Of a DNA stretch of 64,000 nucleotides, positions 31,182 through 56,069 are shown piece after piece. Each line of letters starts with the position of its first letter. The stretch's first letter is position 1. This DNA comes from a virus (taxonomy: Duplodnaviria; Caudoviricetes). Where the stretch lies: the IMG/VR virus record IMGVR_UViG_3300010429_001449; one strand, given 5' to 3'. The notes beneath the pieces are model-generated. The model was not told where the DNA came from, searched no databases, and worked only from the letters and a program-made list of their open reading frames with translations. The translations under genes and the position numbers were made by a program.

Positions 31182-31790
31182 TCAGGAGACTCGACTTTTC
31201 CGCGTGTGAACTTCAGTCCACAGGCGGCTTCCGTTCAAAGCCAAAAGACGCTGCCGAAGCTCTTCGGCTGAACAACCTTCCGCGTCTTCCAAAATGTCGT
31301 CCAGAAGCTCGGCACACGTGCCGCTTTTTCTTATCATACCAAAGCGACCCGCGTTGTCCAGTCCAAATTCTGCAACAACCTCTTGTCTGAGCGTATTTGA
31401 GTTCAGGCGTTTCACGAGAATCCGTTGATCCTCGCCGAACTCGTTGCGCCGACGGAGGCGTTCGACCTCAGAAACCATATTAGACCAGCTTCCGTCGAAG
31501 TTCAAGGCCCTGTCGTCAATTAAAACGTCATAATAGATTTTTGGCGAATCGGAACCTTTGCCGGGGAGATTCTGGTTTATAGCATCGAAAGGAATACCCT
31601 CCGAGCGCAGTAATTCGGCTGTGGCCTCTTCGTCATCACGGACAGTGAATATCAAAATGCGCCAGCCGCGCTTCCGAAGCTCCAACATGGCTTCCTTGAC
31701 GCCGGGCAGAAAGCGGTTATCGGCGTCTACCATTGTGCCGTCTACATCAACGGCGAGAATGGGCGGATCAACTTGTCGACCATTTGCCAT
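31182..31790 (-). CDS. HAD-superfamily phosphatase with a C-terminal extension
   Basis: DVDGT (motif I), FTVR (II), K (III), IDDRA (IV). Confidence 0.8.
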   Translation of the reverse strand: MANGRQVDPPILAVDVDGTMVDADNRFLPGVKEAMLELRKRGWRILIFTVRDDEEATAELLRSEGIPFDAINQNLPGKGSDSPKIYYDVLIDDRALNFDGSWSNMVSEVERLRRRNEFGEDQRILVKRLNSNTLRQEVVAEFGLDNAGRFGMIRKSGTCAELLDDILEDAEGCSAEELRQRLLALNGSRLWTEVHTRKSRVS

Positions 31791-32637
31791 CGTTTATATC
31801 CCACACAGCTTTCTGCTGAAGCTCATTCAGACGTGTAACAACACCTTCAATCTCGCCTGAGCGGAAACCAAATGGATGCAAAGTTACGGCTATCATGTTG
31901 GGGTCAATCGCAGCAAGCATATCTCGAACGTAGGGATGTATCGGCTTATCCCTGAACCGTCTCCCAATGTTACACTTAAGGTAGTCGCGGATGTCGTCCT
32001 TTACAAAGGTGTAACCGTTGTCTATGGCATACACCCTGTGAAAACTGTCCATGATGAAATTGCCAGAGTGCCGATCCATAGCCCCCGTAATAAAATCGAA
32101 AGCACAAAGCAAGTGCAGCCACGGATTGTCGTAGTCCTCGCGGAACTCGTACCCCGACTCTGCCCAGTCAACGGCAAGAGGCGAGAGCACCCACGCCTGG
32201 AGAGAACCGAAGCCGAGACCTAAAACTTCTCGCCCAACAGTCGGAGGAACAAGATTGAAACCCAAGGCGCGATCAAGGGCGTAGGCGGCAAGCTCTCGTT
32301 CGGGAGATGTGACGCGACTGTCGGTACATTCACGGTAGTAGGACGTTTCTTCTATAGAACGCACGGTCTTGAACACGGCGCATTGCGTTGTAACAACACC
32401 TACCTTGTTACCGCCGTTGAAGATTACTTTCCACGGTCTGTGGATTCCGCGCCCTATGATATCCAGTTCGTCTATCGGAGCGGTACGGAGAAAACGACAC
32501 ATATCGGCGTGATCGAGCGGGGTTAGTGGTTTACGGCGATTGCTCCACTCCGCGCCAATATCTTTCGTCTTCCGGAGAAGCGCGTCTGTTGTTCCCCGGA
32601 GCATAAGCTGAAACGTGTTGCTCAGCGTTGTTCGCAT
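31768..32637 (-). CDS. PI3/PI4-kinase-like (HipA-related fold) kinase
   Basis: AVFK, RELAAY, LVPPTV.R, GSLQAWV, DRHSGN, AIDNG. Confidence 0.85.
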   Translation of the reverse strand: MRTTLSNTFQLMLRGTTDALLRKTKDIGAEWSNRRKPLTPLDHADMCRFLRTAPIDELDIIGRGIHRPWKVIFNGGNKVGVVTTQCAVFKTVRSIEETSYYRECTDSRVTSPERELAAYALDRALGFNLVPPTVGREVLGLGFGSLQAWVLSPLAVDWAESGYEFREDYDNPWLHLLCAFDFITGAMDRHSGNFIMDSFHRVYAIDNGYTFVKDDIRDYLKCNIGRRFRDKPIHPYVRDMLAAIDPNMIAVTLHPFGFRSGEIEGVVTRLNELQQKAVWDINDGKWSTS

Positions 32638-40952: not shown

Positions 40953-43439
40953 TTACTGCTCCTTTATGCCCAACTGTTCAGCAAGAACGCCTGCTATGCG
41001 TTTCTGAGTAGGCTCATCCACATTACGGAACAGGCGCACGTTGTTTTGTAGCCAAGAAAGCACATCTCTTTCGCTCCCGATTGTGCCTTCTCGCGCCGCA
41101 GCTTCAAATCTGCGCGAATCATCTTCAGAGAAGCGCAGTCTTTGGAACAAGCCACGCGCTGCGCGAAGAACGTCTTCTCCAAACTCCACACGCCTTCCGG
41201 TTGGTCTCCGTTCTCCGACCGGACGACGCTCTCTCGGAGGACGACGCGCCGGAAGTTCCCTTCGGCGCGGCGGCGTTGGCGCGGCTGTAGAGGCTGGAGC
41301 CGGGGCGGGAGGCGGCGGCGGTGTAGCCGGGGCTGGGGTCGGGGCGGGAGGCGGTGCGGGGGGTTCTGGCTCCGGAGTAGCCTCTGGCGGCGGTGGTTCT
41401 GGTTCCGGGCCTCGTTCGATAGCAGCCTTGGCGCGGTCTACCAACTCGCGATCTTCCGGACTCAAGTCGGTGCCTTCGAGCGCTGAAATGGCGTCGGTTA
41501 CTCTTTGAACATTACCCCGAGACCACTGCGTCTCGCGGGGATTCCGGCTGCGCTCCATCGAATCAATGTTGGTTGCGATAGCATTTATCGCTTGGCTGCG
41601 AGTCATACCGGCGGGCGTAGCAGCCGGGGTTGGCTCGGTCGGAGGCTCAGGCGCGGGCGGCTCGACTTCGGCGGCTGGCGGCGCGACTTCGGCGGTTGGC
41701 GGAGTGGCTGCGGCGGGCGCGGGGCCGAGAGGCAATACGCCCTGTACGCGGCGAGACGGCGGAGGAACAACCGGAGCACGCGGCTCACGCCCCACGGGCA
41801 ATTCACGGCTTTCCGGCGGACGAGCGCGGCCACCGGCAGTGCTTACGCCGTCTGCCTGCGATGCGTCTGGGACTCCTTGAATCTCGGTGTCGGATGGAAC
41901 CAAGGCTCGAACTGTGTCGAGATAAGAACGCGACTGCTTGCCGAAACGTGCGGCCAGCGCTGTCTTAGCGGCAGACAAGCGCAGCCAAAGTGCCTTCTCG
42001 TAAAGATTAGAGGCTTTTCGAGCTTTCTTGTAGTAGCTCCTTGCGGAAGCCTCCGTTACGCTGACCGCAGAGTTCATTATCATAAACGAAGACCCTGCGT
42101 AGACGGTACTGTGCCGATTCTGCGCAACCCACTCATCGATGCGCTGATTGAACGCATCGTCCGATTCATCAGCGCCACGAACCAAGCCGCCGCCCTCTTT
42201 GTCTCGGGGACGAACAGCGTCCTGGCGCAGCAAAGTATCATAGTCCGTGCCGGAAATGTAACGGCTGTTGTAGTGCAGCACGGACTCTCCCATCACGTCG
42301 ATGTACATTGACAAGGCCGCTCTGGTGTTGCCCGTCTTGCGAGCATCGGCAGACAAAGCCGCGCCACGGACGTTATACGTACCGAGACGCTCATCATCCG
42401 TGCCGATGTTTTCGTCAACAGACGTGAAGTACTTTTTCCAACCCTCAGCATCGCCGCCGCGCATCACGACATCGCGTCCCAAATAAGCGCTCTGCCTCCT
42501 AGCGCGTTCTTCTGGGAAAGCCTGCAAGTCTTCCTGCTTGGCGATTGCGGTGGTGTAATGAACCAAATCATCTCGAACACCCGTATAGATCATCGCCTCG
42601 CGTTGAAGTGCGAGAGCATTTTGCAACGCTTCTTGCTCTTTCGATGATTGGCCGCGTTGCTTGAACTGCTCGGCCTCGCCTATGAAACGCTGGCGCAGTT
42701 CTTCGCACTTTGCGAGATAGGCGTTGGCGTTCCTGACACCTTCGATGTTCTGTTCTCTCGCGCCAACACCCTGCATACCAGTTACGGTGGCGTTCAAACC
42801 TGCATCGTCCCAGTGCAACGATTGGTAGTCGCGCAAGTGGAACCACAAGGAGGCGTTCTTGTTGATGTCGTCCGCCATGAAAAACCGCTTGGTCAACATA
42901 CCGCCGGGCGTCACAAGACGCATAACGTCCTTGACGCTCATATCAGCCTCATTCAGGACGGCTTGCGCTTCGGCAGAGATTCCGGCCTTCCATGTTTTGC
43001 GCTCCCCGGCGTAAGCTCCGCCAGCGCCCCATTCTCCGCTCAGACCGCCTGTGGCCCGCTGGCCGATTGAAGGCAGACTGCCGCCGCGACGACCAGGACG
43101 GCCTCTATGACCGTGGTGGCCGCTGCCTTTGCCGCCCTTTTCGGTGTCCTCGGAACCGGACATCTCATCGGACGATACGACTTCTACTTCTTCGACTGGA
43201 TACTGCGGGGCCAAATCTTCCGGAGAAGATGCTCCCATCAAGGGGATATGACATTTCGGGCATTCCTTACCGCGTGCCGGAATACCGCGTTCGTGGGGCG
43301 ATTGATACCCGCACATCGGGCAATAATCAACCACGGCTCCGCCGTCCATCTGCGCGGGACCGCCCATACCACGCCCTTGTCCACGACCCTTGTCCAGCGA
43401 ATCAAACAATCGAGAACCGAAAGGATGCGGAACAGGCAT
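40953..43439 (-). CDS. Large putative internal virion protein
   Basis: CPMCG...PHERG...CPKC motif; K-GGKGSGHHGHRGRPG.RGGS motif; helical middle; Pro-rich linkers. Confidence 0.7.
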   Translation of the reverse strand: MPVPHPFGSRLFDSLDKGRGQGRGMGGPAQMDGGAVVDYCPMCGYQSPHERGIPARGKECPKCHIPLMGASSPEDLAPQYPVEEVEVVSSDEMSGSEDTEKGGKGSGHHGHRGRPGRRGGSLPSIGQRATGGLSGEWGAGGAYAGERKTWKAGISAEAQAVLNEADMSVKDVMRLVTPGGMLTKRFFMADDINKNASLWFHLRDYQSLHWDDAGLNATVTGMQGVGAREQNIEGVRNANAYLAKCEELRQRFIGEAEQFKQRGQSSKEQEALQNALALQREAMIYTGVRDDLVHYTTAIAKQEDLQAFPEERARRQSAYLGRDVVMRGGDAEGWKKYFTSVDENIGTDDERLGTYNVRGAALSADARKTGNTRAALSMYIDVMGESVLHYNSRYISGTDYDTLLRQDAVRPRDKEGGGLVRGADESDDAFNQRIDEWVAQNRHSTVYAGSSFMIMNSAVSVTEASARSYYKKARKASNLYEKALWLRLSAAKTALAARFGKQSRSYLDTVRALVPSDTEIQGVPDASQADGVSTAGGRARPPESRELPVGREPRAPVVPPPSRRVQGVLPLGPAPAAATPPTAEVAPPAAEVEPPAPEPPTEPTPAATPAGMTRSQAINAIATNIDSMERSRNPRETQWSRGNVQRVTDAISALEGTDLSPEDRELVDRAKAAIERGPEPEPPPPEATPEPEPPAPPPAPTPAPATPPPPPAPAPASTAAPTPPRRRELPARRPPRERRPVGERRPTGRRVEFGEDVLRAARGLFQRLRFSEDDSRRFEAAAREGTIGSERDVLSWLQNNVRLFRNVDEPTQKRIAGVLAEQLGIKEQ

Positions 43440-43526: not shown

Positions 43527-43736
43527 TCAACCTCTCTTGTCTGACCGAGCAAGGATATCCTTCAGGGGGCGGCGGACGACAGTAACACGCCCGTCAGGAC
43601 CGATTTGAGGATCAAGAAAGAGTTTTGCGTCGCCGTTGAGTTCGACCGTCAAAGCATCTTCGTTTGCCTCTACGAATCCCGGCACAGGAAAAACAGCCGC
43701 CGGAGGGCGACGATTGTTTTGTTCTTGCTGTCTCAT
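43527..43736 (-). CDS. Small partner (immunity/chaperone-like) of paralog A
   Basis: ATGA overlap with the paralog A stop; clearly homologous to 48774..48977. Confidence 0.8.
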   Translation of the reverse strand: MRQQEQNNRRPPAAVFPVPGFVEANEDALTVELNGDAKLFLDPQIGPDGRVTVVRRPLKDILARSDKRG

Positions 43737-46210
43737 TTCGACCGTCCTTCCAACAGAGTCCTGTCGAGCCGCTTCGTAAACTTATCTATGCGCTGACGAC
43801 TCGGCATTCCTTCTCTGAGATTGATCACGGCATCCCAATCAGTACCCATCATGGAAACAATACCCCACGCGCCTTTCTTGACTGACCCTCGCAAATGCGT
43901 CAAGTACTTCTCCTTCTCCTCGTCTTCCTTATCTTTGTCTTGGATAAAGTGCCGCACAGAAGCCCACCGAGCTTCGTAATAATTGTGGTCTTCAAGAAGC
44001 TGATCCAGTGTAGCTGCTAAATGCGTAGGAAGAGGCATCCTCAAGTCGGTGTATTCCCAGGCGTGATTAAGCTCCTGCGCTTGGGCAGTAAGCGCATCCT
44101 TCATCGTGCTAACATTTGCCCTATCTTGTTCGGAATCAACACTATCGGCCAAACGATCAAACATGCGTTCTACGAGAGACGTGAATCTGTCTCGGGCATT
44201 TTCGGCAATATGCTCACCGGCAAAGTCAAAGCCGCTTTTGGCCCATGTATAACCTCCGCGATCCAAGTTCGCGTGGCAAGTCATTGATTTTCGCCCGAAA
44301 GCCAGAGCCATCTGAGCTTCTCGAACCAACATGCTCCCGGCCCAGTGCGTGTCTTTTGCTCTTCCGGCCATAGATATCAACTCTGCTGTGATGTTTGATT
44401 TAGAATAGGTGCGTCGAATGGTAGCTACCTGCCCCTCGCTATCGCTTATCTCCGCAGTGTAAAACAGGCGTGGGTTAGCTCCACCAAATAAAGCGTAGGT
44501 GGTCACTGATACAGTAAGACCAGCGCCGCCCATAATACTCTCTAAGGTTTTGATAGACGGAGCGTAACCCATCGAGTCAAGCGTGGCTTTGATAACGTCA
44601 TCCGCTCCTTCTTGATAGTCGCCTGTAGCTTTCATGTCCTGAACAGCGCTCTCGAATGTAGCAGGCGACAGCCTCTGCGCAACGGCGTTCATACGAGCTT
44701 TTTCGGCTTCTAGCAACTGCTCTTGCTGCGCTTTTTCTTCAGAAGATAGTTCTGCCGGTTGCTGTCCGCCGTGTTTCAAGGCGGTCAAGAATGTACTCAC
44801 AACGTCGTCCGATACGTCCTTGTTGGTCGCATCCGCCGCGAGAAGGTTTCGATAAAGCTCATTAAGGTCTCCCGAAGATAAGGCGGAACCTTGTCGGTAT
44901 GTATCCAAAAGTTGGTTCATGCGGTTGTCTGAGATATCTCTGTAAAGACTAGCAGACCCTAACGATGCTGATTCCTCATCTTCTTCGCTAAGATCGCGGC
45001 TGCTAAGCGCATCATCCAAGTCTCGTAAACGCCCTCGGAGGTCGTCGTCGGGAAACTCGGACTCGAAGTCATAAACGGCGGCTTCTAAGTTATCTCGGTC
45101 ATCGCTGGTAAGGTAGCCTTCTGATTGATAGCGATCAACGTAGTATTCGATGCTGCCCATCAACTCAGTATATCGCTCGGTTTCTTCCGTAGAGGCGCCG
45201 GACACAGCGTCTTCGACAGAATCGGACACAAGAGCGTACAAATCCGGTGACGCATCCTCCAAAGAGGATGCTAAGGAACGAAGGCTGTCCTGATCACTGC
45301 GGTCGAGCGAGCCGTCGCGGGCAAAGGACTCTAACAGGTCTTGTATCTTGTCGAGATCATCCAAGCTCTCGTTCTCTTCGTACGCCTCTATCTGAGCCTT
45401 GACCTCATCCGTTATCAAGTTCGGATAACGTTTTTCGTAGCGGTCTAAACTCTCGTCAAACTGTTTCAAGTCTTCCGCGCTGGTTATGCCACTGAAATCT
45501 CCTGCGTTGATTCGGGCTAATTGTTCTGAGACTTGCTGCTTGAACGCTGTCGACAACGCCGCAGAGCGATCCGCACGAGCCATAACCGCGTTGCGGCTTT
45601 CTTCGCTCTTGATGTCCTCATAAGACCCTCGCCCAAGTACGCCGGGAAACCGCTCCGCCCAACTATCGATGATGCTGATTAGCCGGTTGTAATCGTCAGG
45701 AGTAACGAAGGCGTCTTCGTTTCCTTCTTTTAAGGAATTGAGTGCGGCGTAAATGGCGTTACCTTCGTCCTTTTCCGCTTGAGGAATGTCTTCCGAAGTA
45801 TAGGAACGCTCCGACGAAGGGCGTTCCTCCGCAGGAGCCGACGGCGCGGGTTCTTCGTCCGGCAAAGGATTAGCTTCCCTTACTGCCGCTACGTAAGATC
45901 GCTCACGTTCTTCCCATCCTTCTTGTTCCCGTTCGGCCAGCATCCTACTCGCAAGTTGCGCGGAAGTGGTAGGCTGTCCGGAAGCGTCTTTGAGGTCTTT
46001 TAGCCGATTCAAGTCTTCGGTCGAGAAAAGCTGATCACTAATAGCCCCGCCAGGCTCAACCAAAGCTAAACGTCCTTCGTCTCCGTGCCCTACGAACATA
46101 TAAGCACCGGTGCGTTCCGTGAACTTGCCTTCCCGGTCGTGCCAAGGATTCTGCTTCTCGACATTGCGAGATTTTTCGAGCGCAATGCTTACCCAGTCGT
46201 AAACACGCAT
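43733..46210 (-). CDS. Large acidic protein, paralog A, with a C-terminal GNAT-like domain
   Basis: YDW..KQNPWHDREGKF; CHANLDRGGYTWAKSGFDF. Confidence 0.75.
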   Translation of the reverse strand: MRVYDWVSIALEKSRNVEKQNPWHDREGKFTERTGAYMFVGHGDEGRLALVEPGGAISDQLFSTEDLNRLKDLKDASGQPTTSAQLASRMLAEREQEGWEERERSYVAAVREANPLPDEEPAPSAPAEERPSSERSYTSEDIPQAEKDEGNAIYAALNSLKEGNEDAFVTPDDYNRLISIIDSWAERFPGVLGRGSYEDIKSEESRNAVMARADRSAALSTAFKQQVSEQLARINAGDFSGITSAEDLKQFDESLDRYEKRYPNLITDEVKAQIEAYEENESLDDLDKIQDLLESFARDGSLDRSDQDSLRSLASSLEDASPDLYALVSDSVEDAVSGASTEETERYTELMGSIEYYVDRYQSEGYLTSDDRDNLEAAVYDFESEFPDDDLRGRLRDLDDALSSRDLSEEDEESASLGSASLYRDISDNRMNQLLDTYRQGSALSSGDLNELYRNLLAADATNKDVSDDVVSTFLTALKHGGQQPAELSSEEKAQQEQLLEAEKARMNAVAQRLSPATFESAVQDMKATGDYQEGADDVIKATLDSMGYAPSIKTLESIMGGAGLTVSVTTYALFGGANPRLFYTAEISDSEGQVATIRRTYSKSNITAELISMAGRAKDTHWAGSMLVREAQMALAFGRKSMTCHANLDRGGYTWAKSGFDFAGEHIAENARDRFTSLVERMFDRLADSVDSEQDRANVSTMKDALTAQAQELNHAWEYTDLRMPLPTHLAATLDQLLEDHNYYEARWASVRHFIQDKDKEDEEKEKYLTHLRGSVKKGAWGIVSMMGTDWDAVINLREGMPSRQRIDKFTKRLDRTLLEGRSK
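45867..46156. repeat. 290-bp colinear duplicate of 48426-48715
   Basis: Near-identical N-terminal coding segments of paralogs A and B. Confidence 0.85.
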
Positions 46211-46219
46211 CGCCGCCTC

Positions 46220-48769
46220 CTAGAACAATCCTTGCTCGCCTTCTTCTTCCATCCTTTGACGGAAAGGCCCGGCGGCCTCGCGCAACGTCTTTCGCTCCAC
46301 TTTCAGTTTACCGTCAGGACCGATGGAAATGTCTATAGCCAACTGTTTATCTCCGCCCAAGTTCTCCATCGCCCAAGCCTGTTCTGCATCAATAAGTCCC
46401 GGAAACAAGAAGTCGGCAGCTTGACGCTTCTGTCGCGGACGTTCATCAACTACTTCCTTGCCGAACAAGTCCTTTTTCACGGAAAAAACTCCATCAAGAG
46501 AAGCTTGAACGGGTTGCGGCGACTTTTCTTCCGGCATTTCCGCCTGCGGAGACGCAGGCTTTGCCGGACGCCACTGCAACCGATGCCTGCGCTGGCGTTC
46601 TTCGCGCTTGCGCAGAGGCTCCAAAGTTCTAGCCAACATGTCGTCAAATCTTTTACGACCGGGAGTATCGGGAGTCAAATCAAGACGTGCCCCCCACGAT
46701 GAGCCGTAAGTCATGTAACGCCCTATGAGACCGTTTTTCAACGAGCCGCGCAAATGCTCTTCGAGATTCTGTCCGTAATGCCGCGCACGCGACTTGGTGT
46801 GAGGTTCCAGCGCCGCAACTATATCGTCTCGGTAGTCTTGCGGCAAAGTTATAACGAGATCGGAGAAATCCCACGCATGATACAGCGGGGGGCGACCTGT
46901 TTGAGGATCAACCGCAAACAAGGAATCGATTGTCTGGCGCAACGGCGTTACTTCGGCGGCAATCTCCTCCCGACTCTTACCTTTGGCCGACATAACTGAT
47001 TCCAAGGTAGTTACAAGATAACCAAGCCCCTGCTGAAAGTTCTGCGTGACATTCTCTCTCTCGTAATGGCTTTCAAAGTCAAAACCGATGTGCCCCCACA
47101 TATAACCTCCTCTGTCTATGTTGGCGTGGCACCTCATCTCTTTCCTTCCATTCTTAACGACCATATCCCCTTCCTTAGCCAACATGTGAGCATTAACCAT
47201 CTTGTCTTTGTACTCGTCTCTCGCCGTGTTCAAGTGAGCATCAACACGGTCTTTGAAATAATGGCGACTCATGTGCATAACTTCTTCTCCCTCAGAGTTT
47301 TGGATAGAAACAGTATAGTAGAGGTTAGGATTATCACCAGAAACGAGTCTATAACCTATGTGCGTCGTATGTCCCGGCGCGTCGTAGGCATAAATGTTCT
47401 CCAGAGCCGCTTTTGTAGGCGTCGGTCCTAATTCTCGAAGCGCCTGCTGAATCCGACGTAACTCCGCTCGGTATCCGCGCAGAGTCGGATCGAGACCCAT
47501 GTCTTGCGCGGCCCGCTCCGCGTTGGTGGTCTCTAGGTGAGCGTCCTTTGTGCGATCTTCTACTTCTCCCAGCACGTCTCGTTGAGAGAGTTCTTCCAAT
47601 AACTGCTCCGCATCTGCGCTCAGAGACGGAAGAGCAGAAACAGCAACGGATTCGGGGCGAACGGCACGCGCCAAACGTCTTTCCGCAGTCAGAAAGATAC
47701 CGCTAGATATAACACCGGGATACTGACTGGCAGCTTCGTCGAAAAACGAGATAGCATCGCGCACATCGTCGGCGTTCAAAGTCTCAGAAGACGAAATCAT
47801 ATCTCGATAATAACGATAACTTTCTTGCGTATCCGCTGGCAAATCACTGGTAGAGCTAAAGTACTGCACGTTAGTTTCTCCCGCGTCAAACTTAGCGAGC
47901 ATACGTTCAGCCGCGTCTCTCCAATGGAAATAGTAAACATCTAATGCCCCATTAACTTGCTCGTTAAGCTCATCGTATCGTTCCGTGAAGGCACGCAAAC
48001 CTTCCGGATCGTTGGCATAGTCCCCGTGTTGTATCTTAGTATCTTCTCGGTATATAAAGTTTGCCACGTCGTCTAGCAACGACCCCCCTGCTAATTCACG
48101 GAGTGAGTTATTTGCAGAGAGTCGTATCTTGGTATAAGGGAATTCGTCGAAAATACCGGGATTCTGAGCCTCAAGTCGCTGCGCGACATCGGCTGTTTGT
48201 CGTATGTCGCGGGTAGAATAATAAAGGGAGTCCACTAATCCTGCAAATTCGTTCCGCGTTTCGAGAGGCAAGCTGAAATAGTCCCCGGCGGGCGGTGCTT
48301 CTTCTTCTTCTCTTTCTTCTTCTGAGGGCGCTGCTTCAGCTTCAGGCTCGCCGACAAGTAGTGTTTCGCCTTGTGTCTCGCCCGGCGTCACGATTGTTAA
48401 CTCTTCGGCAGTCGTCGCTTCCAGAGGATTAGCCTCTCGAACAGCAGCCGCGTAAGCCCGTTCCCGTTCTTCCCATCCCTCTTGCTGCCGCTCCGCCAAC
48501 ATGCGCTGAGCAATCCTTGCCGAAGTTGTAGGCTGCCCATCGTCATCCTTGAGGTCTTTTAGGCGATTCAAGTCTTCATCGGAGAAAAGCCGGTCGCTGA
48601 TAGCCCCGCCAGGCTCTACGAGCGCAAGACGCCCCTCGTCCCCGTGCCCAACGTGCATGTAAGACTCGCCGCGACGCGCAAATTTGCCTTCCCGGTCGTG
48701 CCAAGGGTTCTGCTTGGAGACATGGCGGGACTTCAACAGAGCATATCCGAGCCAATCATAAGTACGCAC
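46220..48769 (-). CDS. Large acidic protein, paralog B, with a GNAT-like domain and fused partner domain
   Basis: GTG at 48769 aligns with the paralog starts; CHANIDRGGYMWGHIGFDF; C-terminal L.GD..L...IGPDG...R..L.E. Confidence 0.75.
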   Translation of the reverse strand: MRTYDWLGYALLKSRHVSKQNPWHDREGKFARRGESYMHVGHGDEGRLALVEPGGAISDRLFSDEDLNRLKDLKDDDGQPTTSARIAQRMLAERQQEGWEERERAYAAAVREANPLEATTAEELTIVTPGETQGETLLVGEPEAEAAPSEEEREEEEAPPAGDYFSLPLETRNEFAGLVDSLYYSTRDIRQTADVAQRLEAQNPGIFDEFPYTKIRLSANNSLRELAGGSLLDDVANFIYREDTKIQHGDYANDPEGLRAFTERYDELNEQVNGALDVYYFHWRDAAERMLAKFDAGETNVQYFSSTSDLPADTQESYRYYRDMISSSETLNADDVRDAISFFDEAASQYPGVISSGIFLTAERRLARAVRPESVAVSALPSLSADAEQLLEELSQRDVLGEVEDRTKDAHLETTNAERAAQDMGLDPTLRGYRAELRRIQQALRELGPTPTKAALENIYAYDAPGHTTHIGYRLVSGDNPNLYYTVSIQNSEGEEVMHMSRHYFKDRVDAHLNTARDEYKDKMVNAHMLAKEGDMVVKNGRKEMRCHANIDRGGYMWGHIGFDFESHYERENVTQNFQQGLGYLVTTLESVMSAKGKSREEIAAEVTPLRQTIDSLFAVDPQTGRPPLYHAWDFSDLVITLPQDYRDDIVAALEPHTKSRARHYGQNLEEHLRGSLKNGLIGRYMTYGSSWGARLDLTPDTPGRKRFDDMLARTLEPLRKREERQRRHRLQWRPAKPASPQAEMPEEKSPQPVQASLDGVFSVKKDLFGKEVVDERPRQKRQAADFLFPGLIDAEQAWAMENLGGDKQLAIDISIGPDGKLKVERKTLREAAGPFRQRMEEEGEQGLF
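48426..48715. repeat. 290-bp colinear duplicate of 45867-46156
   Basis: Same length as the partner copy, with long identical stretches. Confidence 0.85.
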
Positions 48770-48773
48770 GATG

Positions 48774-48977
48774 TTACCCTCTCTTCTTAGCAGCAAGAAG
48801 TTCTTTCAGCGGCCTGTCGGTAAAGACAAGTTGTCCGTCCGGCCCGCGTGTGATCTTCGTGTACAACGAAGCATCACCATTGAGTTCCAACGTCAAATCA
48901 TCCTCGTTGTCCTCAATGAACTTCGGGTAAGGAAACTCGGTGTGCGCTGTCTTATCCTTCGGGTTGGGGGCTGCCAC
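48774..48977 (-). CDS. Small partner (immunity/chaperone-like) of paralog C
   Basis: Overlaps the end of paralog C; FP.P.F.E.NED.LT.ELNGDA.L...GPDG...RPLK..LA...KRG. Confidence 0.8.
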   Translation of the reverse strand: MAAPNPKDKTAHTEFPYPKFIEDNEDDLTLELNGDASLYTKITRGPDGQLVFTDRPLKELLAAKKRG

Positions 48978-51507
48978 GTCTTGTCTCCCGGAAAATGTGC
49001 TTGTCCAAACGTCGTGTGTACTTTTCGATGCGCTTGCGGCTCTCTGCGCCGTCGCGTAGATTCATGTGAGCGGCCCAGTGAGAACCGAGAAGGGCTGCTT
49101 TGCCCCAAGCCCCTGCCTTAACGGCACCTTGCAACTGGTCTATGAACTGTTGCCGCGCTGCGGGGCGATCTGCGGCATCCACAGAGTATTGTACCTCTTG
49201 CCAACGACGCTCGTAATAATTATCTGCTTCCAGTGCCGCGTGAACCTTCTCCGTATATTCTTTTGAAAGAGGCATTCTGTAATCGGCGTACTCCCAAGCA
49301 TGACTCTGTTGCTTCTCTGCCAAGTGCGTTGCGATAGAGCGCAGGTCTGCCGTTTCCTCTCTTGTTAATCCTGCTTGTCTCTCTACCGCAGTAAAGAGCG
49401 TGTCTATCGTTTGCGCGTAGTGGGTGTAAAACCTCTCCGCCACGTCTTCCGACACAAAATCAAAACCGCTCTTGGCCCAAGAGAATCCGCCGCGATCCAG
49501 ATTGGCGTGGCACCACATGGACTTGCGCCCGAATGCAATAGCCATCTGAGCTTCTTTGCTCAAGATGCCCCCCGCCCAAGCAGTGTTGCGGTACTTCGGC
49601 GACATATGAATCAAGGACGCATCTATGTTACGCAGCCCGTAACCTCTGGTTATCTCGGCGACTTCGTTGCCGTCTTGATCCCGTACGTAAACGACATAAC
49701 CGAGTGCCGGGCGATCCAAACCCCCGGTAAGCTCGTACCCTGACACGGACACAGTCAATCCTTCGCCGCCATATATCTGCTCTAACGAGGCTTTAGATGG
49801 AGCGTGACCGAGTTTTTTCAACATAGCCTCGATGGTTGACGGAGACTTTTTGTAGTATTCAGTGGTGTCTCGAGCGTAACTCTCTGCTGTTGCGGGCTGA
49901 TAGTGCTGCGCAACCCGTTCCAACTCCTGTTTTCTTGCTTCGGCGGCTTGCGCCTGAGCCGGATCAACGTCGGACGGAGGCTGCTGCCCCTGATAACGAA
50001 GAATGTTGGAGATGACTGCGTCTATTTCACCGCCAAGCTCGCGGTCGTCGCGGTCTGCCGCATGAACGACTTGCATAAGAGCCGTTACTTCTTCGGCAGA
50101 CAGCGCGTTACCGCTTGTGTAAGAATCAAATAGTCGGCGAGCCGACGTTCCTAAACTAGAGCGCAAAGCCTCATCGGCAGGACGTTCTTCTTCCTCTTCT
50201 TCGTCTGCGTCTTCGGTGGGCCCAGCATCTTCGCCAGCATCTTCGCCAGCATCTTCGCCAGCGTCTTCCGGCGCACTTTCCCACTCCAAAGCTTCCACGC
50301 TATCAGAAATAATCTCATTCAAGTTACCATAGTGATCCGTGATGTCCTCGTCTGGAAACTCCCGCCTGAAACGCGCTACCAAGTCTTGCAGTTCGCTTAG
50401 CTCTTCGGAGTTCAAGAGACGCGGACGACGACCTCTTCTTACGTAAGGATAGATTTCATCTACGATAGCGGAACGGCGTTCTTCTTGCTCGCTCTCGCGT
50501 GCCGCCTCCTCGCGGCCCTCGAAATCCAACGCACTTGCAACAGTGTCTCTCACATCAGACGCCAAATCCGGGTATTTTTCGCTCAATTCGCCATAAAGCT
50601 CCTCCAACTTAACCCCATTCTCTCTTGAGATTTCTTCGTACTCGCTAAACTCGTCCAAGATAGGCGATATACCTTCGTACAAGTGGAAAAGATCGCTTCC
50701 TTGCAGTCGGCGCACGCCTTCCCCCAACGTTCCTTCCGAGACAGCCGCAGGGTCTCTAGTCGCAAAGTCCTCCAAATTCTGCTGCAAACCGTCGAGAAAA
50801 GTCATGTTCAACGACTCTCCGCGCAGAACAGTGTTGATGCGTTCTTGCAAGTCGGAAACAAGCGCGGCCTTTCGTTCCTCGGATTGCTGCGCATGTTCTG
50901 CTATAAGCTGCCGCGTTTCATCGCTCTTGATGCGTTCAGCAATCTCATCAGGAACCGCCCCCGGATAATCCGTCTGGAAATAATCAACGATTTCAAGCAG
51001 ACGGTTGTACTCCGCCGGAGTCAAATAAGCACCTTCGTCATCCCGCGAGAGTGCGCTTATAGACGCAAAGAGCGTATTACCTTCGTCGCGCAGCGGTTTC
51101 GGTATGTCTCCCGCCGAATACTGACGAGAAGGCTCGGACGCCGCGCCTTCCCCCAGACCCTCTACCATCCTACGAATGGCTTGCCGTTCTCGGTCTTCCC
51201 AACCTTCAGAACTCCGCCCGCGCAATAGATACCGCGCAACTTGTGCAGAGCGACTCAATTCCTCTCCGGTCTTCCTCGCCCGCATCTCGGAACTTCTTAC
51301 AATACGCCTCAAGAGATTGCTGCCGGGCAACGACTCGGCGCGAAACCGCCCGCGCTCCATGACGGCTATAACAGGCGTGTCGTGGCTGACATAAAGCCTT
51401 GCGTTCTCACGAGATGTGAACTTCCCTTCATCGTCGTGATAGGGATTCTGCTTATCAATCTCGCGTGCCTTGGCCAGCGCTATGCCAAGCCAGTCATAGG
51501 GTCTCAC
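48952..51507 (-). CDS. Large acidic protein, paralog C, with a C-terminal GNAT-like domain
   Basis: YDW..KQNPYHDDEGKF; CHANLDRGGFSWAKSGFDF. Confidence 0.75.
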   Translation of the reverse strand: MRPYDWLGIALAKAREIDKQNPYHDDEGKFTSRENARLYVSHDTPVIAVMERGRFRAESLPGSNLLRRIVRSSEMRARKTGEELSRSAQVARYLLRGRSSEGWEDRERQAIRRMVEGLGEGAASEPSRQYSAGDIPKPLRDEGNTLFASISALSRDDEGAYLTPAEYNRLLEIVDYFQTDYPGAVPDEIAERIKSDETRQLIAEHAQQSEERKAALVSDLQERINTVLRGESLNMTFLDGLQQNLEDFATRDPAAVSEGTLGEGVRRLQGSDLFHLYEGISPILDEFSEYEEISRENGVKLEELYGELSEKYPDLASDVRDTVASALDFEGREEAARESEQEERRSAIVDEIYPYVRRGRRPRLLNSEELSELQDLVARFRREFPDEDITDHYGNLNEIISDSVEALEWESAPEDAGEDAGEDAGEDAGPTEDADEEEEEERPADEALRSSLGTSARRLFDSYTSGNALSAEEVTALMQVVHAADRDDRELGGEIDAVISNILRYQGQQPPSDVDPAQAQAAEARKQELERVAQHYQPATAESYARDTTEYYKKSPSTIEAMLKKLGHAPSKASLEQIYGGEGLTVSVSGYELTGGLDRPALGYVVYVRDQDGNEVAEITRGYGLRNIDASLIHMSPKYRNTAWAGGILSKEAQMAIAFGRKSMWCHANLDRGGFSWAKSGFDFVSEDVAERFYTHYAQTIDTLFTAVERQAGLTREETADLRSIATHLAEKQQSHAWEYADYRMPLSKEYTEKVHAALEADNYYERRWQEVQYSVDAADRPAARQQFIDQLQGAVKAGAWGKAALLGSHWAAHMNLRDGAESRKRIEKYTRRLDKHIFRETRRGSPQPEG
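50222..50268. repeat. 12-bp tandem repeat (~4 copies) encoding EDAG
   Basis: ccagcatcttcg units. Confidence 0.85.
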
Positions 51508-51580: not shown

Positions 51581-51667
51581 TGGTGGGCGCGGAGGGATTT
51601 GAACCCTCACGTCCTTTCGGACAACAGCTTTTGAGACTGCCGCGTCTGCCTGCTACGCCACGCGCCC
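51581..51667 (-). tRNA. tRNA-Leu(CAA)
   Basis: GGGCGCG/CGCGCCC acceptor stem, loop CTCAAAA, long variable arm, GGTTCAAATCC, discriminator A, encoded CCA. Confidence 0.95.
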
Positions 51668-51686: not shown

Positions 51687-51714
51687 AGTATAACAGCGTG
51701 GGCGGGAATGTCAA
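51687..51714 (-). promoter_or_regulatory. Repeated phage promoter (16-bp spacer class)
   Basis: TTGACA-N16(..GCTGT)-TATACT. Confidence 0.85.
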
Positions 51715-51721
51715 GAGAAAA

Positions 51722-52066
51722 TCAAGAATCGAAATCGTCATCATCCAACAGCGGCAAGGGTAAGGGATCGCTCGGTAAGTTGGCAGCGAGGCGGTTCTTG
51801 ATTTGCAGCATTGCTATTCTTCCGTCGCCGACGAACGGATTAGTGCCGCTGCTGTAGACTTCCGCAACCGCAGCGCGAAGGGCTTCCTCTTCGGTCTTGA
51901 TTTCATACCGGTGCAGAGCAGTAGCTACTCCTGCGCAAGACAATAACCGCCTGCGCATACGCGCCCTGTCCTTTGTAGCGTATAAACGCACGTCATGATT
52001 CGGAAAAATAAGAGACCACGCCTCACCAGGGACAACACTACTCAACAAGCGTGGTAAGTCCAGCAC
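51722..52066 (-). CDS. Hypothetical protein
   Basis: Own promoter and GGAGG RBS. Confidence 0.6.
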   Translation of the reverse strand: MLDLPRLLSSVVPGEAWSLIFPNHDVRLYATKDRARMRRRLLSCAGVATALHRYEIKTEEEALRAAVAEVYSSGTNPFVGDGRIAMLQIKNRLAANLPSDPLPLPLLDDDDFDS

Positions 52067-52086
52067 AGACTTAGCCCTCCTGCCCT

Positions 52087-52114
52087 AGTATAACAGCGGA
52101 GGCTAGAATGTCAA
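52087..52114 (-). promoter_or_regulatory. Repeated phage promoter
   Basis: TTGACA-N16-TATACT. Confidence 0.85.
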
Positions 52115-52211
52115 GTTAATCCATTGCTGTACAGCAACAAAGAATCTCTGTGTTCCTCGCGGAGAGAAACCGCCGCGCCTCAAAAAAGGAAAGAAAATCT
52201 CCACTATTCGC

Positions 52212-52240
52212 TTGACCTAGCGGCAAACGAGTGGTAAGAT
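52212..52240 (+). promoter_or_regulatory. tnpB promoter (probably leaderless mRNA)
   Basis: TTGACC-N17-TAAGAT with TG extension; GTG starts 7 nt downstream. Confidence 0.6.
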
Positions 52241-52247
52241 TCAGTGC

Positions 52248-53417
52248 GTGGAGATACAAAGAACAATCCAGATCGTTATAGAGCCGAGCGAAGAACTCGA
52301 AGATACCCTCGCGGTTTTTACGCAAGTGTGCAATCAGATTTCGCCAACGGCTTACAATGGCGGAGAGTTCCTGAGACACATTGATCTTCATCACGCTGTT
52401 TATTCCAGTATTAGGAACGTTCTGTCTAGTCAAATGGCATGTACTGCCATTCGCCTGACGGCGGGAGCTTACGTTGCTATCAAAAAGAACAGACACGATA
52501 TCACTAAGCCCGCTCGATTCCTAAAGCCAAGAGCGTTGTTCTTGATTGGCAAAAGAGGTCGAGACGCATCGTTCCGAAGAGACGGGCGGCTCTCGATCTG
52601 GACAGTACGCGGACGAAAAAAGTTGTCTTATTCCGTCCCCGAATACTTCAAGCCGATGTTGGCTTGCGCCAAAACGGTCGATAGCATCAACGTCGTCAAA
52701 AGGAACGGAAAGCTTATCGGCTTTGTGTCGATCACCATTGATGTGCCGGACGCCGTCGGCGTCCATCCCGTAGGGGTTGATCTCAACGAAACTAATCCTG
52801 TCGTTGCTGTCGACGACAGAGACAGGGAGTTGTTTGTTGCCGGTGCTGTTCAGAAAGAACGGAAAAGGCGAATCCGCAAGACCAGAAAACGTCTCCAGAA
52901 ACGGCTTGCTTCTCGAAAGGCAGAGGGAAAGTCCACGAAGTCTGTTGGACGAGTCCTCAAACGGCTGCGAGAACGGCAAAGCCGATCCACCAAAGACTTC
53001 TGTCACGTCGTATCGAAAAAGCTGGTGAACTGGAGTCCTAAGAACTCGGTTTTGGTCTTCGAGGATTTGTCCTTTGAGCAGGGAGATCAGGAGCACGGAA
53101 AGGCGTGGAATCGAAGGTTTCACGAATGGCCAAGAGGCCAGATCGTGGAAATGACGACGTACAAAGCGGAAGGAAAGCACGGAGTGGTTTTCATTAATCC
53201 CGCCTACACGTCTCAGTTCTGTTCCCGTTGCGGTTTATTTGGACGCCGTAATCGTCATTCTTTCGTTTGTCCTCATTGCCAGTTCCGTTGTCACGCTGAT
53301 CTCAACGCCGCCAAGAACATTCGTAATCATTTTGCCGTGCTACGGCATGGTGGGCTGCCGTCGATCAGCCCCGAAGCATCTTCGAGATGCAAGCCTCCGG
53401 CTTTAGCCGTGGGGTAA
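52248..53417 (+). CDS. tnpB: RNA-guided endonuclease TnpB
   Basis: RuvC motifs GVDLN, VFEDL and ADLNAAKNI; Zn finger CSRCG...CPHC. Confidence 0.92.
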   Translation: MEIQRTIQIVIEPSEELEDTLAVFTQVCNQISPTAYNGGEFLRHIDLHHAVYSSIRNVLSSQMACTAIRLTAGAYVAIKKNRHDITKPARFLKPRALFLIGKRGRDASFRRDGRLSIWTVRGRKKLSYSVPEYFKPMLACAKTVDSINVVKRNGKLIGFVSITIDVPDAVGVHPVGVDLNETNPVVAVDDRDRELFVAGAVQKERKRRIRKTRKRLQKRLASRKAEGKSTKSVGRVLKRLRERQSRSTKDFCHVVSKKLVNWSPKNSVLVFEDLSFEQGDQEHGKAWNRRFHEWPRGQIVEMTTYKAEGKHGVVFINPAYTSQFCSRCGLFGRRNRHSFVCPHCQFRCHADLNAAKNIRNHFAVLRHGGLPSISPEASSRCKPPALAVG

Positions 53418-54364
53418 TCGACTGGGCCTTTTCGATTAAATCTTTCGGGTATATCTGTCCCCTCGAAACATATCTTGAACCAATTACCTTCTACGCGGGC
53501 CTGAGCGGTCTCGGCTTCGAGCCGCTCCAATTCCTCCGTATTCAGAGGGGAGAATCCCTGCGTCCAATTGACTAGATTCACGAGTTGGTCTTCGTTGTCA
53601 ACACCTACAATGGCGCAATCGATGTCGTGCGAGAGGACGTAGCGCAAAGCCAAATGTGCCGCCGCGTCAATGGCGACGGGCAGCTTTTCCAGCATAGGAC
53701 CACGGGCCATTACCTTCATTGCTATAGCACCCATCCCTTTATCTACGAGCTTCGGTAGAAGCACGTGTTTGAAGGACGGCCCGTGGATGTCTGCCATGTT
53801 CAAGGCGAAAAGGCACGTATCAAAATGCGGGAAATAGTTGATGAACTCGCGGAGCAGGACGGGATCAGAGTGTCCGGTAACACCGATGTGATCAACCAGA
53901 CCCTGCTGCTTCGCCTTGTACATAGCCAAGACGACGCCCTTTTCGAGCGTTTTGAAGTCGCGGTCTTTCCATTGGAGGTTGTGCAACTGCCATAGATTCA
54001 CCCGCCGTCCCAGAAGGCGCATAGATTCTTCCAGAAGGCGCATAGAGCCGTCATAGGAACGTTCGTGCGTCTTTGTGGCTAGGAAGACCTCTGCTTCCGG
54101 TAATCCGCGCAGCGCCCATCCTAGACGCGCCTGCGACTCGCCGTAGCCGGGGGCTGTATCGAAATACTTGATGCCGAGATCGAGCGCCCTACGAATGATT
54201 CCGATAGCCTTGCCGCCGGATTTGCCGTACTGAAGGTAGCCTTGACCCCCCAAACCCAGACGTGTTACAGTCTCGCCGGTATTGCCGAGAGGCTTCAAGG
54301 GTATGTGCAAGGACGTTGGATCATCGGCGGGCAGTCCTTGCCGAACCCAGTCATAAAGACCCAT
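53327..54364 (-). CDS. Aldo/keto reductase; the C-terminus reads into the IS
   Basis: LGNTG..V..LGLG, YFDTAPGYG.S, FLATK, QLH, IGVTGH, IAMK. Confidence 0.9.
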   Translation of the reverse strand: MGLYDWVRQGLPADDPTSLHIPLKPLGNTGETVTRLGLGGQGYLQYGKSGGKAIGIIRRALDLGIKYFDTAPGYGESQARLGWALRGLPEAEVFLATKTHERSYDGSMRLLEESMRLLGRRVNLWQLHNLQWKDRDFKTLEKGVVLAMYKAKQQGLVDHIGVTGHSDPVLLREFINYFPHFDTCLFALNMADIHGPSFKHVLLPKLVDKGMGAIAMKVMARGPMLEKLPVAIDAAAHLALRYVLSHDIDCAIVGVDNEDQLVNLVNWTQGFSPLNTEELERLEAETAQARVEGNWFKICFEGTDIPERFNRKGPVDYPTAKAGGLHLEDASGLIDGSPPCRSTAK

Positions 54365-54367
54365 CCA

Positions 54368-54952
54368 TCAACCTCCAGACAAGGCGGGAACGGGATCAAG
54401 CTCTTTCGCAGCCACGTCCTTCAACTGTCCCATCAGTCTAGCCTCAAGCGCCCGCAATTCCAAGAGATTCATGCCGCCGATATCTTCGCCGCTCGTAATG
54501 CGAACGCTGATGGCATTTTCCGTCTTCGAGGTCGCGCCTTCCACGACACCGCTCTTGATCAGGAAAGAGGCTTCTGCGGCCAAAGACCGGATAGCTTTGT
54601 CCAGAAACTGCGCCTTGTTGGCCCCTTTGTCTTGAAGATCAAACTGAGTCAGGGCTTCCGCCGTCAAATGTTGGAAACGCGCTACGACGCCGCCTTTCAA
54701 CACCGCATCGTCTGCCGCTCGAATACGCTCGCCCCAATTTTCTTCCAACGCTTTGAGGTCCGTGTCAACGGTGCTTTTAGAGACGCCGAGAGCGTTGGCT
54801 ATCTCCCGAACTGTCATGCCGCGCAGCCGATACGACAAAACCTCGCTGCGACGAAGCTCGATATCAGGTTCTTTGTTCGGGCGCGGATGATCCGCAGTAG
54901 CTTTACGCTTGGGCTGTTTCTTGTGCGCTGTTGGAGTTATGGCCTTTGCCAT
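54368..54952 (-). CDS. Probable terminase small subunit (HTH)
   Basis: RRSEVL.YRLRGMTVREIANALGVSKSTVDTD followed by helices; first gene of the head region. Confidence 0.6.
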   Translation of the reverse strand: MAKAITPTAHKKQPKRKATADHPRPNKEPDIELRRSEVLSYRLRGMTVREIANALGVSKSTVDTDLKALEENWGERIRAADDAVLKGGVVARFQHLTAEALTQFDLQDKGANKAQFLDKAIRSLAAEASFLIKSGVVEGATSKTENAISVRITSGEDIGGMNLLELRALEARLMGQLKDVAAKELDPVPALSGG

Positions 54953-55014: not shown

Positions 55015-55200
55015 CTAATCTACCGCCTTGAATATCTGTCCACACCAGCCACAACGATACCGAGAATCCGCGCCGAGAGGATCGAGAGACGCGCCGCAGG
55101 AGGGGCATACGTATTCAGAACGGGGACGCGGAGTCTTGCCGAGACCCAGAAGCCACGCCCCCGCGCAAACAAACAACAGAGTCTTCCAGAAGGCGGTCAA
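55015..55200 (-). CDS. Small Zn-ribbon protein with a hydrophobic N-terminus
   Basis: CPSCG...CGWCG; start overlaps the NADAR stop. Confidence 0.55.
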   Translation of the reverse strand: MTAFWKTLLFVCAGAWLLGLGKTPRPRSEYVCPSCGASLDPLGADSRYRCGWCGQIFKAVD

Positions 55201-55850
55201 AGGGCGTTCCCGGACAGAATGTCGGTGCGAATGGCCATCAACAGCTTGCCCAGATGATTGTCGCCCTTGCCCTTCGTTGTGCCCCAGAACGTATCACCCC
55301 ATGTATTGCCTTCGCGCAGTTCGCAGGGATGTGTAGCAATCAACTTTCTGCTTAAGTCGGCGTGACGGGTGAACTTCTGTTTCAACAGCGCCTCCATGAC
55401 AGACAGGCGCATGTCATTCCAGCCCGGCCTCAACGTGAGATTCTGGCCCCGATGCTTTGCTTCGGCGGGACTGGACGCCGTTCTGATCCACTCTCGCATC
55501 TTCATATCATCGGTCTTAGCCGCCTGATAAGCGTGCTCGACCGTAGGGTACAACGCGCCTTCATACTCGACCGGCGCAGAGAAAAAGTTCGAGAGAAACC
55601 GGTGATCCCCCCGAAAAGACGTTATCGGGGGCGGCGCGTCCGCTTTGACAAGAGCAGTCTCCGCCACGGCAAGCTGGCGCGGACCAGTGCCTCCCTCGCC
55701 AAGCGGCTTAGTGAGCGTCACCGGCCAGCGACCCGTCTGAAAATACTGGAACGAACGACGTTCCAAAACACCTTCCCGACCGTTCCACGGAGTTCCGGGT
55801 TCGACCAGCGTAACGCGATCACCCGGCAACCACTTCGTCTTGTCGGCCAT
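55197..55850 (-). CDS. NADAR-family protein with an N-terminal extension
   Basis: FLSNF, TVEHAYQAAK, KF, EGN.WGD.FWG, G.NHLGKLLM. Confidence 0.9.
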   Translation of the reverse strand: MADKTKWLPGDRVTLVEPGTPWNGREGVLERRSFQYFQTGRWPVTLTKPLGEGGTGPRQLAVAETALVKADAPPPITSFRGDHRFLSNFFSAPVEYEGALYPTVEHAYQAAKTDDMKMREWIRTASSPAEAKHRGQNLTLRPGWNDMRLSVMEALLKQKFTRHADLSRKLIATHPCELREGNTWGDTFWGTTKGKGDNHLGKLLMAIRTDILSGNAL

Positions 55851-55929: not shown

Positions 55930-56016
55930 TGGCGGAAGGGAGGGGACTCGAACCCCTGGAACCTCTCGGTTCACCGCGTTTCCAACACGGCGCAATCGCC
56001 ACTATGCGACCCTTCC
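55930..56016 (-). tRNA. tRNA-Ser(GGA)
   Basis: GGAAGGG/CCCTTCC acceptor stem, loop TTGGAAA, long variable arm, GGTTCGAGTCC, discriminator G, encoded CCA. Confidence 0.95.
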
Positions 56017-56041: not shown

Positions 56042-56069
56042 AGTATAACAGCGCGGGTAAGAATGTCAA
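56042..56069 (-). promoter_or_regulatory. Repeated phage promoter
   Basis: TTGACA-N16-TATACT. Confidence 0.85.

Follow-up and report, generated by a model that had tools for sequence, protein, structure and literature searches.

A phage array of paralogous GNAT-fold proteins with small, predicted cleft-binding partners as candidate unbundled polyvalent-type cargo

The window analysed here, a stretch of 64,000 nucleotides, corresponds to bases 97158-161157 of one 268,817-bp IMG/VR virus record (IMGVR_UViG_3300010429_001449) from an uncultured phage. On its minus strand lies a tandem array of three genes for large paralogous proteins, A, B and C, each of which has a partner of ~65 amino acids (aa). 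The partner is encoded by a separate gene behind A (gene a) and C (gene c) and is fused to the end of B. The large proteins begin with a short leader containing a Y-D-W helix (the YDW leader) and end in a domain resembling GNAT acetyltransferases. The features of the array, in window positions, are as follows.

48952-51507, minus strand: gene C, 851 aa, with YDW leader, head domain, acidic helical middle and GNAT-like domain (~48955-49815)
51400-51507, minus strand: leader of C
48774-48977, minus strand: gene c, 67 aa, partner of C, with a GTG start inside the end of C
46220-48769, minus strand: gene B, 849 aa, read from the GTG at 48769 to give MRTYDW (the longest open reading frame extends to 48796)
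48662-48769, minus strand: leader of B
~46577-47449, minus strand: GNAT-like domain of B, followed by a disordered basic/Pro linker
~46223-46447, minus strand: fused small-partner domain of B
43733-46210, minus strand: gene A, 825 aa, a mosaic, with its GNAT-like domain at ~43736-44578
46103-46210, minus strand: leader of A, residues 1-36, YDW helix plus NPWHDREGKF
43527-43736, minus strand: gene a, 69 aa, partner of A

The genes are tightly packed. C and c overlap by 26 nt, c and B are separated by 4 nt and B and A by 9 nt, and the start of a overlaps the stop of A by 4 nt (ATGA). The original prediction had described three large paralogs by a set of sequence motifs, with a small domain that is separate and overlapping after A and C and fused in B. 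The open reading frames (ORFs) and a BLASTP comparison against the 1785 ORFs of the genome agree with this description, and the motifs are present. A matched C over its full length (E 3e-142) and matched B at the N-terminus (1.8e-54) and the C-terminus (2e-33). Among the small partners, a matched c (4.5e-16) and the tail of B (1.6e-7), and motifs conserved in all three window copies are F-x-x-P, a position with G-D/N, G-P-D-G and a position with P/T-L-K/R-E/D. The large proteins have a common layout consisting of the amphipathic YDW leader with NP(W/Y)HD..GKF, a conserved head domain of ~75 aa, a strongly acidic helical spacer of 330-450 aa and the C-terminal GNAT-fold domain. The acidic middles have a net charge of -36 to -59, and an Atlas search with them returned low-TM helical matches only. 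No match was found for A, B, C, a or c in Pfam, PHROGs or NCBIfam.

A fourth paralog, D (841 aa, genome 256784-259309), is encoded 110 kb from the array. It follows the same head-to-tail plan, has its own downstream gene of 81 aa and carries further middle domains to which no family was assigned; an LYHVT-type segment lies in this middle region. Orthologs of A (P0007, from a related phage), B (P0010) and D (P0011) were found. Protein A is a mosaic, its first ~115 residues being 78-82% identical to B and its body being closest to P0007. The shared head of A and B is only ~70% identical at the DNA level, so the exchange was not recent.

The occurrence of the small partner was examined beyond the array. 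All eight occurrences found lie directly downstream of a GNAT copy or are fused to one, and no unlinked copy was found among them. The relatives showing this pairing come from two other assemblies. In one related phage (L002/L003), an A-type gene with a 70-aa partner is followed by a B-type gene with the partner fused, and the partner is also fused in P0010. In another relative (L016), the partner of the B-type gene is a separate overlapping gene of 92 aa that starts where the linker of B reads KKDLFG. Both D and its ortholog likewise have an overlapping gene (78-81 aa) behind them. The partner of the D ortholog, P0168, scored 12 bits against a hidden Markov model (HMM) built from the a/c/B-type partners only, above all 2000 shuffled sequences. 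The remaining three proteins of this genome that carry the YDW leader have no such partner gene, so the partner goes with the GNAT domain rather than the leader. A word-index search, a limited method, found the partner family in this phage lineage and on one 1.4-kb contig only. The partner had no match in Pfam or NCBIfam, including any ribbon-helix-helix (RHH) or other DNA-binding domain. By these sequence comparisons, the small partner is a new family that appears to be lineage-restricted, although the evidence for the restriction is weak.

The C-terminal domain was modelled with AlphaFold2 using residues 545-825 of A, giving a predicted local distance difference test (pLDDT) score of 85. Of the best 50 structural matches in an exhaustive VIA-align comparison, 45 were named acetyltransferases. 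These comprised 37 named as GNATs and eight others, including p300/CBP, NatD, KKT23 and Elp3; one further match was an acyl-CoA N-acyltransferase. The best 50 matches had Z scores of 5.4-8.0, with 95-141 residues aligned across model residues 1-281. A helical insertion of ~125 aa separates alpha4 from beta6, and the structural alignments span both sides of it. Foldseek gave the same picture, weakly. Together with the profile search described next, these results bear out the earlier description of the C-terminus as GNAT-like, and the model identifies the domain as a GNAT alpha/beta fold, with a four-stranded N-terminal sheet, alpha3, beta5, alpha4 and beta6.

A profile built from the five available copies of this domain was compared with 1.84 billion cluster representatives and gave 1714 matches at E<=1e-3, many of them in proteins of 1000-6000 aa. 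In the matches that were scanned, the aligned stretch was Pfam Acetyltransf_1, and one of these proteins also had an ADP-ribosyltransferase domain. P0011 itself passes the Pfam GNAT cut-off (22.3 against 20.7), and D matched Pfam GNAT with E=0.023. In Alteromonas phage R7M gp24 and the morphogenesis protein of Pseudomonas phage RaNi, the same GNAT family stands N-terminal to a MuF domain. In Bacillus phages Shanette (gp30) and CP-51 (gp195), a C-terminal GNAT of the array family is encoded beside the terminase large subunit gene. As judged from the alignments, the array domain is thus a member of a large family that occurs in giant polyvalent proteins and also in fusion with MuF. DNA and tblastn searches of GenBank phages with the array, with A and even with the terminase large subunit gave no match, nor did a search with the GNAT domain of D; the phage is thus remote from all GenBank phages.

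We compared the acetyl-CoA loop across this family. In the family alignment, the canonical loop Q-G-x-G-hydrophobic-G/A/S is present in D, P0011, solo members, Shanette gp30, R7M gp24 and the polyvalent modules. All of its signature positions are substituted in A, B, C, P0007 and P0010. GNAT motif A (Q/R-x-x-G-x-G/A, the acetyl-CoA pyrophosphate loop) is lost in the same five proteins, whereas the loop of D, P0011 and the wider family reads as a canonical QGQGIG type. The beta5/alpha4 motif A-N-x-x-x-G-G-x-x-W-x-x-x-G-x-D-F is invariant across paralogs that are only 20% identical. The array proteins had originally been called modifying enzymes. This is doubtful for A, B and C because the canonical acetyl-CoA loop is lost. 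Their sequences suggest that A, B and C may not be enzymes and may instead be binders or pseudo-enzymes, whereas D is probably an active acetyltransferase.

The predicted complex of the A GNAT domain with a scored 0.86 in three of three runs, compared with 0.00 for the best of three controls. Of 80 solved complexes in a benchmark, 58 reached this mark, as did 2 of 110 mismatched pairs; for the present pair these counts are approximate, because custom alignments were supplied for its prediction. The runs had at least 93% of contacts in common, a partner pLDDT of at least 78 and ~150 contacts. No solved complex resembling either chain by sequence was found, so recall of a known complex is unlikely. 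In canonical GNATs, beta4, the acetyl-CoA loop with the start of alpha3, and beta5/alpha4 form the cofactor site. The modelled interface comprises the end of beta4, the acetyl-CoA loop, the start of alpha3 and beta5/alpha4, and further includes one face of an inserted helix, the HAWEYTDLRMPL segment (the HAWE segment) and the C-terminal helix. Because this interface covers the elements of the cofactor site, the partner is predicted to cap the cleft. The model supports binding of the partner to the GNAT domain across the cofactor cleft. Adjacency in every occurrence, fusion and fission across relatives and the predicted complex all speak for the earlier view that each copy has a cognate small partner.

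The arrangement of an effector-like domain with a small downstream gene had suggested a toxin-immunity system, in which active GNAT toxins would be injected or released while a cognate immunity protein protects the producing cell. The small gene lies directly downstream, as at polymorphic toxin loci, and the paralogs and their partners have diversified together. The predicted position of the partner over the cofactor cleft also fits, as TacA/AtaR-type antitoxins block GNAT toxins by covering this cleft. TacT/TacA, AtaT/AtaR and KacT/KacA likewise combine a GNAT fold with a small partner, over the cofactor side, where the array partner is predicted to bind. In GNAT-RHH type II pairs, however, the antitoxin (RHH/DUF1778) is encoded upstream and the toxin is a solo GNAT of ~170 aa. 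The array partner follows its GNAT gene or is fused to it and lacks any RHH or DNA-binding domain, and the GNAT domain ends an 830-aa protein and carries a 125-aa insertion. No particular relation to TacT and AtaT stood out, as fold similarity to GNAT toxins (Z 5.6-6.2) was no higher than to unrelated GNATs. A simple toxin-immunity pair is made less likely by the fusion in B, which is covalent and conserved in P0010, by the loss of the canonical cofactor loop in A, B, C and their orthologs, and by the lack of MuF, of any other known toxin-delivery domain and of an antitoxin-type domain. We therefore regard a toxin-immunity system as unlikely. Immunity is one reading among others of a partner that covers the cleft; an inhibitor-like regulatory role would also fit the predicted position.

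In MuF/SPP1 gp7-type minor head proteins with fused effector domains and in MuF polymorphic toxins, as in the array, the gene behind the effector is small. The GNAT family of the array is joined to MuF in R7M gp24 and in the RaNi morphogenesis protein; there the GNAT is N-terminal to MuF, whereas the array GNAT is C-terminal. The original prediction had recognised no MuF gene; in agreement, PF04233 was absent from A-D and from the whole genome in a search whose control found it in 5 of 14 genomes. In the Bacillus phages, Shanette gp30 and CP-51 gp195 have the HAWE motif, and a 54-aa gene abuts (Shanette gp31) or overlaps (CP-51 gp196) the GNAT gene. Unlike A, B and C, these proteins have a canonical acetyl-CoA loop, and they have no YDW leader. 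No likeness to the a/c family was found in the small ORFs of five distant family members on uncultured contigs, a test that did not include gp31 and gp196. Small ORFs behind L009, L012, L013, L014 and L015 had looked by eye like kin of a and c (F-W/P-x-x-F/Y-L-E-D) and were dropped, as the HMM gave no signal over shuffled sequences.

The leader was followed through the genome. A six-frame scan of the whole genome found the YDW helix, Y-D-W-[LI]-x-x-A-[LF]-x-K, at the head of seven large proteins: A, B, C, D and three with other payloads. These are a CCA-adding enzyme with strong Pfam matches, a PI3/PI4-kinase-like protein that exceeds the Pfam cut-off, and a 790-aa protein that has a zincin HExxH motif but no Pfam match. 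The leader proteins outside the array lie at genome 256784-262000 (L001 6543-11949) and 234000-238000 (L004 4251-7703). The array is therefore part of a genome-wide set of leader-tagged proteins, and not the stand-alone set originally envisaged. The YDW helix is followed by NP(W/Y)HD..GKF or by the Cys-bracketed C..C(R/K/H)D...G.(F/T)T. In multi-module proteins of the GNAT family, NP(W/Y)HD..G(K/R)F or QPRD..G(R/K)(W/F) is repeated two to six times along the chain; P0012 has six copies, and P0059 and P0166 have five apiece. In P0012, the protein in which positions were checked, the GNAT stretch (421-505) is flanked by copies at residues 290 and 602. A second punctuation motif, GSGN.GH.GRPG..GGS, also occurs in multi-module proteins of this family (five copies in P0140), and one copy is present in P0004, the product of the gene downstream of the array. 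Term searches of Iyer et al. 2017 (PMC5512222) returned no description of the punctuation motifs, and a literature search for the strings QPRD, NPYHD, NPWHD and NPNHD found no relevant paper.

In the related phage L002/L003, the leader of the A-type gene is interrupted at the Tyr codon of NPYHD by an in-frame TAA (4383-4472). Two assemblies differing at 7 of 14,804 positions both have this stop, and the gene caller begins the protein at a later Met, without the leader.

The surroundings of the array include the following packaging and structural genes, all on the strand of the array.

2455-5184, minus strand: tail sheath
10627-11997, minus strand: HK97-type capsid protein
14503-16410, minus strand: portal
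36232-38289, minus strand: terminase large subunit (TerL), ~5 kb downstream of the array
40953-43439, minus strand: P0004, 828 aa, the downstream neighbour of the array, with an N-terminal zinc ribbon, a GSGHHGHRGRPGRRGGS motif and long Pro-rich tracts

The phage is a myovirus-type jumbo phage with an HK97-type capsid and portal. The array had been placed between the terminase small subunit (TerS) and TerL. TerL is indeed present, but six genes lie between it and the array, and the supposed TerS is an unverified 194-aa helix-turn-helix protein (54368-54952). The position of P0004 after a B-type gene is kept in relatives, and P0004 may be another cargo protein.

Iyer, Burroughs, Anand, de Souza and Aravind (2017; PMC5512222) describe polyvalent proteins as having two to fifteen effector domains per polypeptide and predict packaging of the GNAT modules among these domains. 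The array shares several features with these proteins. The GNAT domains are of the same sequence family, NP(W/Y)HD or QPRD..G(R/K)(W/F) precedes the module in both, and both are encoded near packaging genes. Unlike polyvalent proteins, A, B and C each have one recognisable effector-type domain and not several. In this phage every module has its own gene (~830 aa), which also encodes an extra YDW helix and a long acidic spacer. The GNATs have a dedicated small partner, and three of the four copies have lost the acetyl-CoA loop. The YDW payloads nevertheless span most of the protein-acting enzyme classes of polyvalent proteins: GNAT, kinase and Pol-beta nucleotidyltransferase, with peptidase as a possible fourth. 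The ADP-ribosyltransferase class could not be confirmed. Because the payload set covers most of these classes, we interpret it as a polyvalent protein in unbundled form. We consider it somewhat probable that A-D are cargo proteins of an unbundled polyvalent type and that each has a regulator binding across its cleft.

Under this unbundled-cargo model, the YDW leader would address A-D, the CCA-adding enzyme, the PI3/PI4-kinase-like protein and the zincin-motif protein to the capsid, and the tagged proteins would be delivered with the DNA into the host. Each GNAT domain would be made together with its ~65-aa partner through translational coupling or fusion. The partner is predicted to drape over beta4, the acetyl-CoA loop, beta5/alpha4 and the inserted helices, and so to cover the cofactor/substrate cleft, serving as either an inhibitor or an obligate regulator. 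D would act as an acetyltransferase, and A, B and C as binders or pseudo-enzymes. Virion delivery of the array proteins is plausible by analogy with the polyvalent/MuF family and from the motif associations. The leader can also be compared with the T4 capsid-targeting sequence of IPI-III and Alt, which is likewise a short N-terminal leader common to unrelated proteins, including enzymes. In contrast to the T4 sequence, the YDW leader has no (L/I)xE cleavage motif at its end, and the capsid and portal here are HK97-type. Searches of the genome for the T4-type prohead protease (PF03420) and gp23 gave no match, and the controls were likewise blank.

A bolder version of the model, which we think improbable, is that the YDW helix and NP(W/Y)HD / QPRD..G(R/K)(W/F) form a general, undescribed cargo handle of tailed phages for loading or processing. 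The GNAT-partner pair would then be a new injected effector capped by a cleft-plugging peptide, with the cap lost on unfolding for ejection or cut off when fused.

A purely structural role was also weighed, in which A-D would be internal head proteins of an inner-body or scaffold-like kind, the GNAT-like domain a dead-enzyme binding module and the small protein a structural subunit. Such a role would account for the lost acetyl-CoA loop, the long and very acidic helical middles, the three abundant-looking paralogs near packaging genes and the extensive predicted partner interface. It is at odds with D, which keeps the canonical loop with the same architecture and partner, and with the recognisable enzyme domains or motifs of the other leader-tagged proteins. 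The invariance of the beta5/alpha4 motif among such divergent paralogs is also as expected for a functional site. We consider a structural role very unlikely.

The transcription context of the array was then considered. An extended consensus sigma-70-type promoter and a tRNA gene lie directly upstream of gene C, and further promoters of this type occur in the window.

51687-51714, minus strand: extended promoter TTGACA-16-TG-TATACT, upstream of tRNA-Leu and gene C
51581-51667, minus strand: tRNA-Leu(CAA), between the promoter and gene C
52087-52114: promoter site
56042-56069: promoter site
59227: promoter site
60330: promoter site

Gene C starts 74 nt past tRNA-Leu(CAA), with no clear terminator between them. 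The consensus of this highly conserved promoter is CTTGACA-N12-CTGTTATA(A/C)T, and it occurs in two subtypes, one with TATACT and one with TATAAT and, downstream of it, a conserved AACCTTTTGTGGAG. The genome has 49 such sites, clustered at 14-62 kb and 148-263 kb, and none falls within window 1-51000, where all structural genes are located. As its promoter type is absent from the structural block, the array is not evidently part of a late structural operon. A second tRNA gene, tRNA-Ser(GGA) (window 55930-56016), lies directly behind such a promoter and directly upstream of a gene for a NADAR-domain protein (window 55197-55850). The sequence suggests that tRNA-Leu(CAA)/gene C and tRNA-Ser(GGA)/NADAR gene are tRNA-mRNA co-transcripts.

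Host-type promoters would suit proteins that stay unpackaged and act inside the cell in host takeover or counter-defence, the YDW leader then serving complex assembly or localisation to the membrane or nucleoid. This would fit both the promoter with tRNA-Leu directly upstream and the absence of its class from the structural block. Exact fragments of the array were also found in two activated-sludge RNA libraries, a weak indication, as these are scattered pieces of 151-236 nt and DNA carry-over is possible. However, the family is tied to MuF head proteins and to TerL-adjacent slots in cultured phages, the N-terminal motif is held in common with polyvalent proteins, and the array is close to P0004 and TerL in the same orientation. 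An unpackaged, intracellular role is, in our estimate, decidedly unlikely.

Several points weigh against the unbundled-cargo model. We infer packaging by analogy and from domain associations, the genome has no MuF domain, and no T4-type prohead protease was found in a search whose control was blank. The array is not obviously a late structural gene set, which weakens the case for packaging. The A-type gene of a related phage has a TAA stop within the leader. The loop is lost in A, B and C, so their cleft may no longer be an active site. For the partner, its apparent restriction to this phage lineage is a weak point, and the fused small domain of B reaches a pLDDT of only ~66 in a single-chain model, in which the linker is disordered. 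The likeness between the D-type and the a/c/B-type partners, seen for P0168 only, is weak but real and hints at a common origin.

Should the leader and motif indeed be marks of capsid cargo, the injected proteins of a phage could be read from sequence alone. The set found here could then be compared with the giant polyvalent proteins, with GNAT, kinase-like, Pol-beta nucleotidyltransferase and zincin-motif proteins present as separate genes. Fusion and fission of the partner, together with its predicted binding in the cleft, provide a testable model for the restraint of a packaged enzyme-like domain. That three of the four copies have lost the cofactor loop is a caution against naming enzymes from the fold alone.

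Further observations concern the record and other genes. The record has a GC content of 55.5% and a CheckV completeness of 77%. No end repeats were found in the 268,817-bp record; its ends (genome 1-100 and 268718-268817) consist of degenerate GGGGGAC/GGGGACG-type repeats. Anaerobic-digester metagenomes hold identical DNA. An aldo/keto reductase (window 53327-54364) begins MGLYDW, which resembles the YDW leader but lacks the second motif, and a 188-aa ORF near genome ~186115 begins MSFDWIKYA and later reads YSDGTF. A second, short PI3/PI4-kinase-like ORF (window 31768-32637) gave a weak match below the cut-off. A family-17 glycosyltransferase gene (window 9682-10503) adjoins the capsid gene. 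The related contig L002 has a single Band_7 (SPFH) gene of 357 aa (3045-4118). Its counterpart at window 51722-53180 consists of three ORFs (114, 126 and 219 aa) with no family match, and this gene may be split or diverged.

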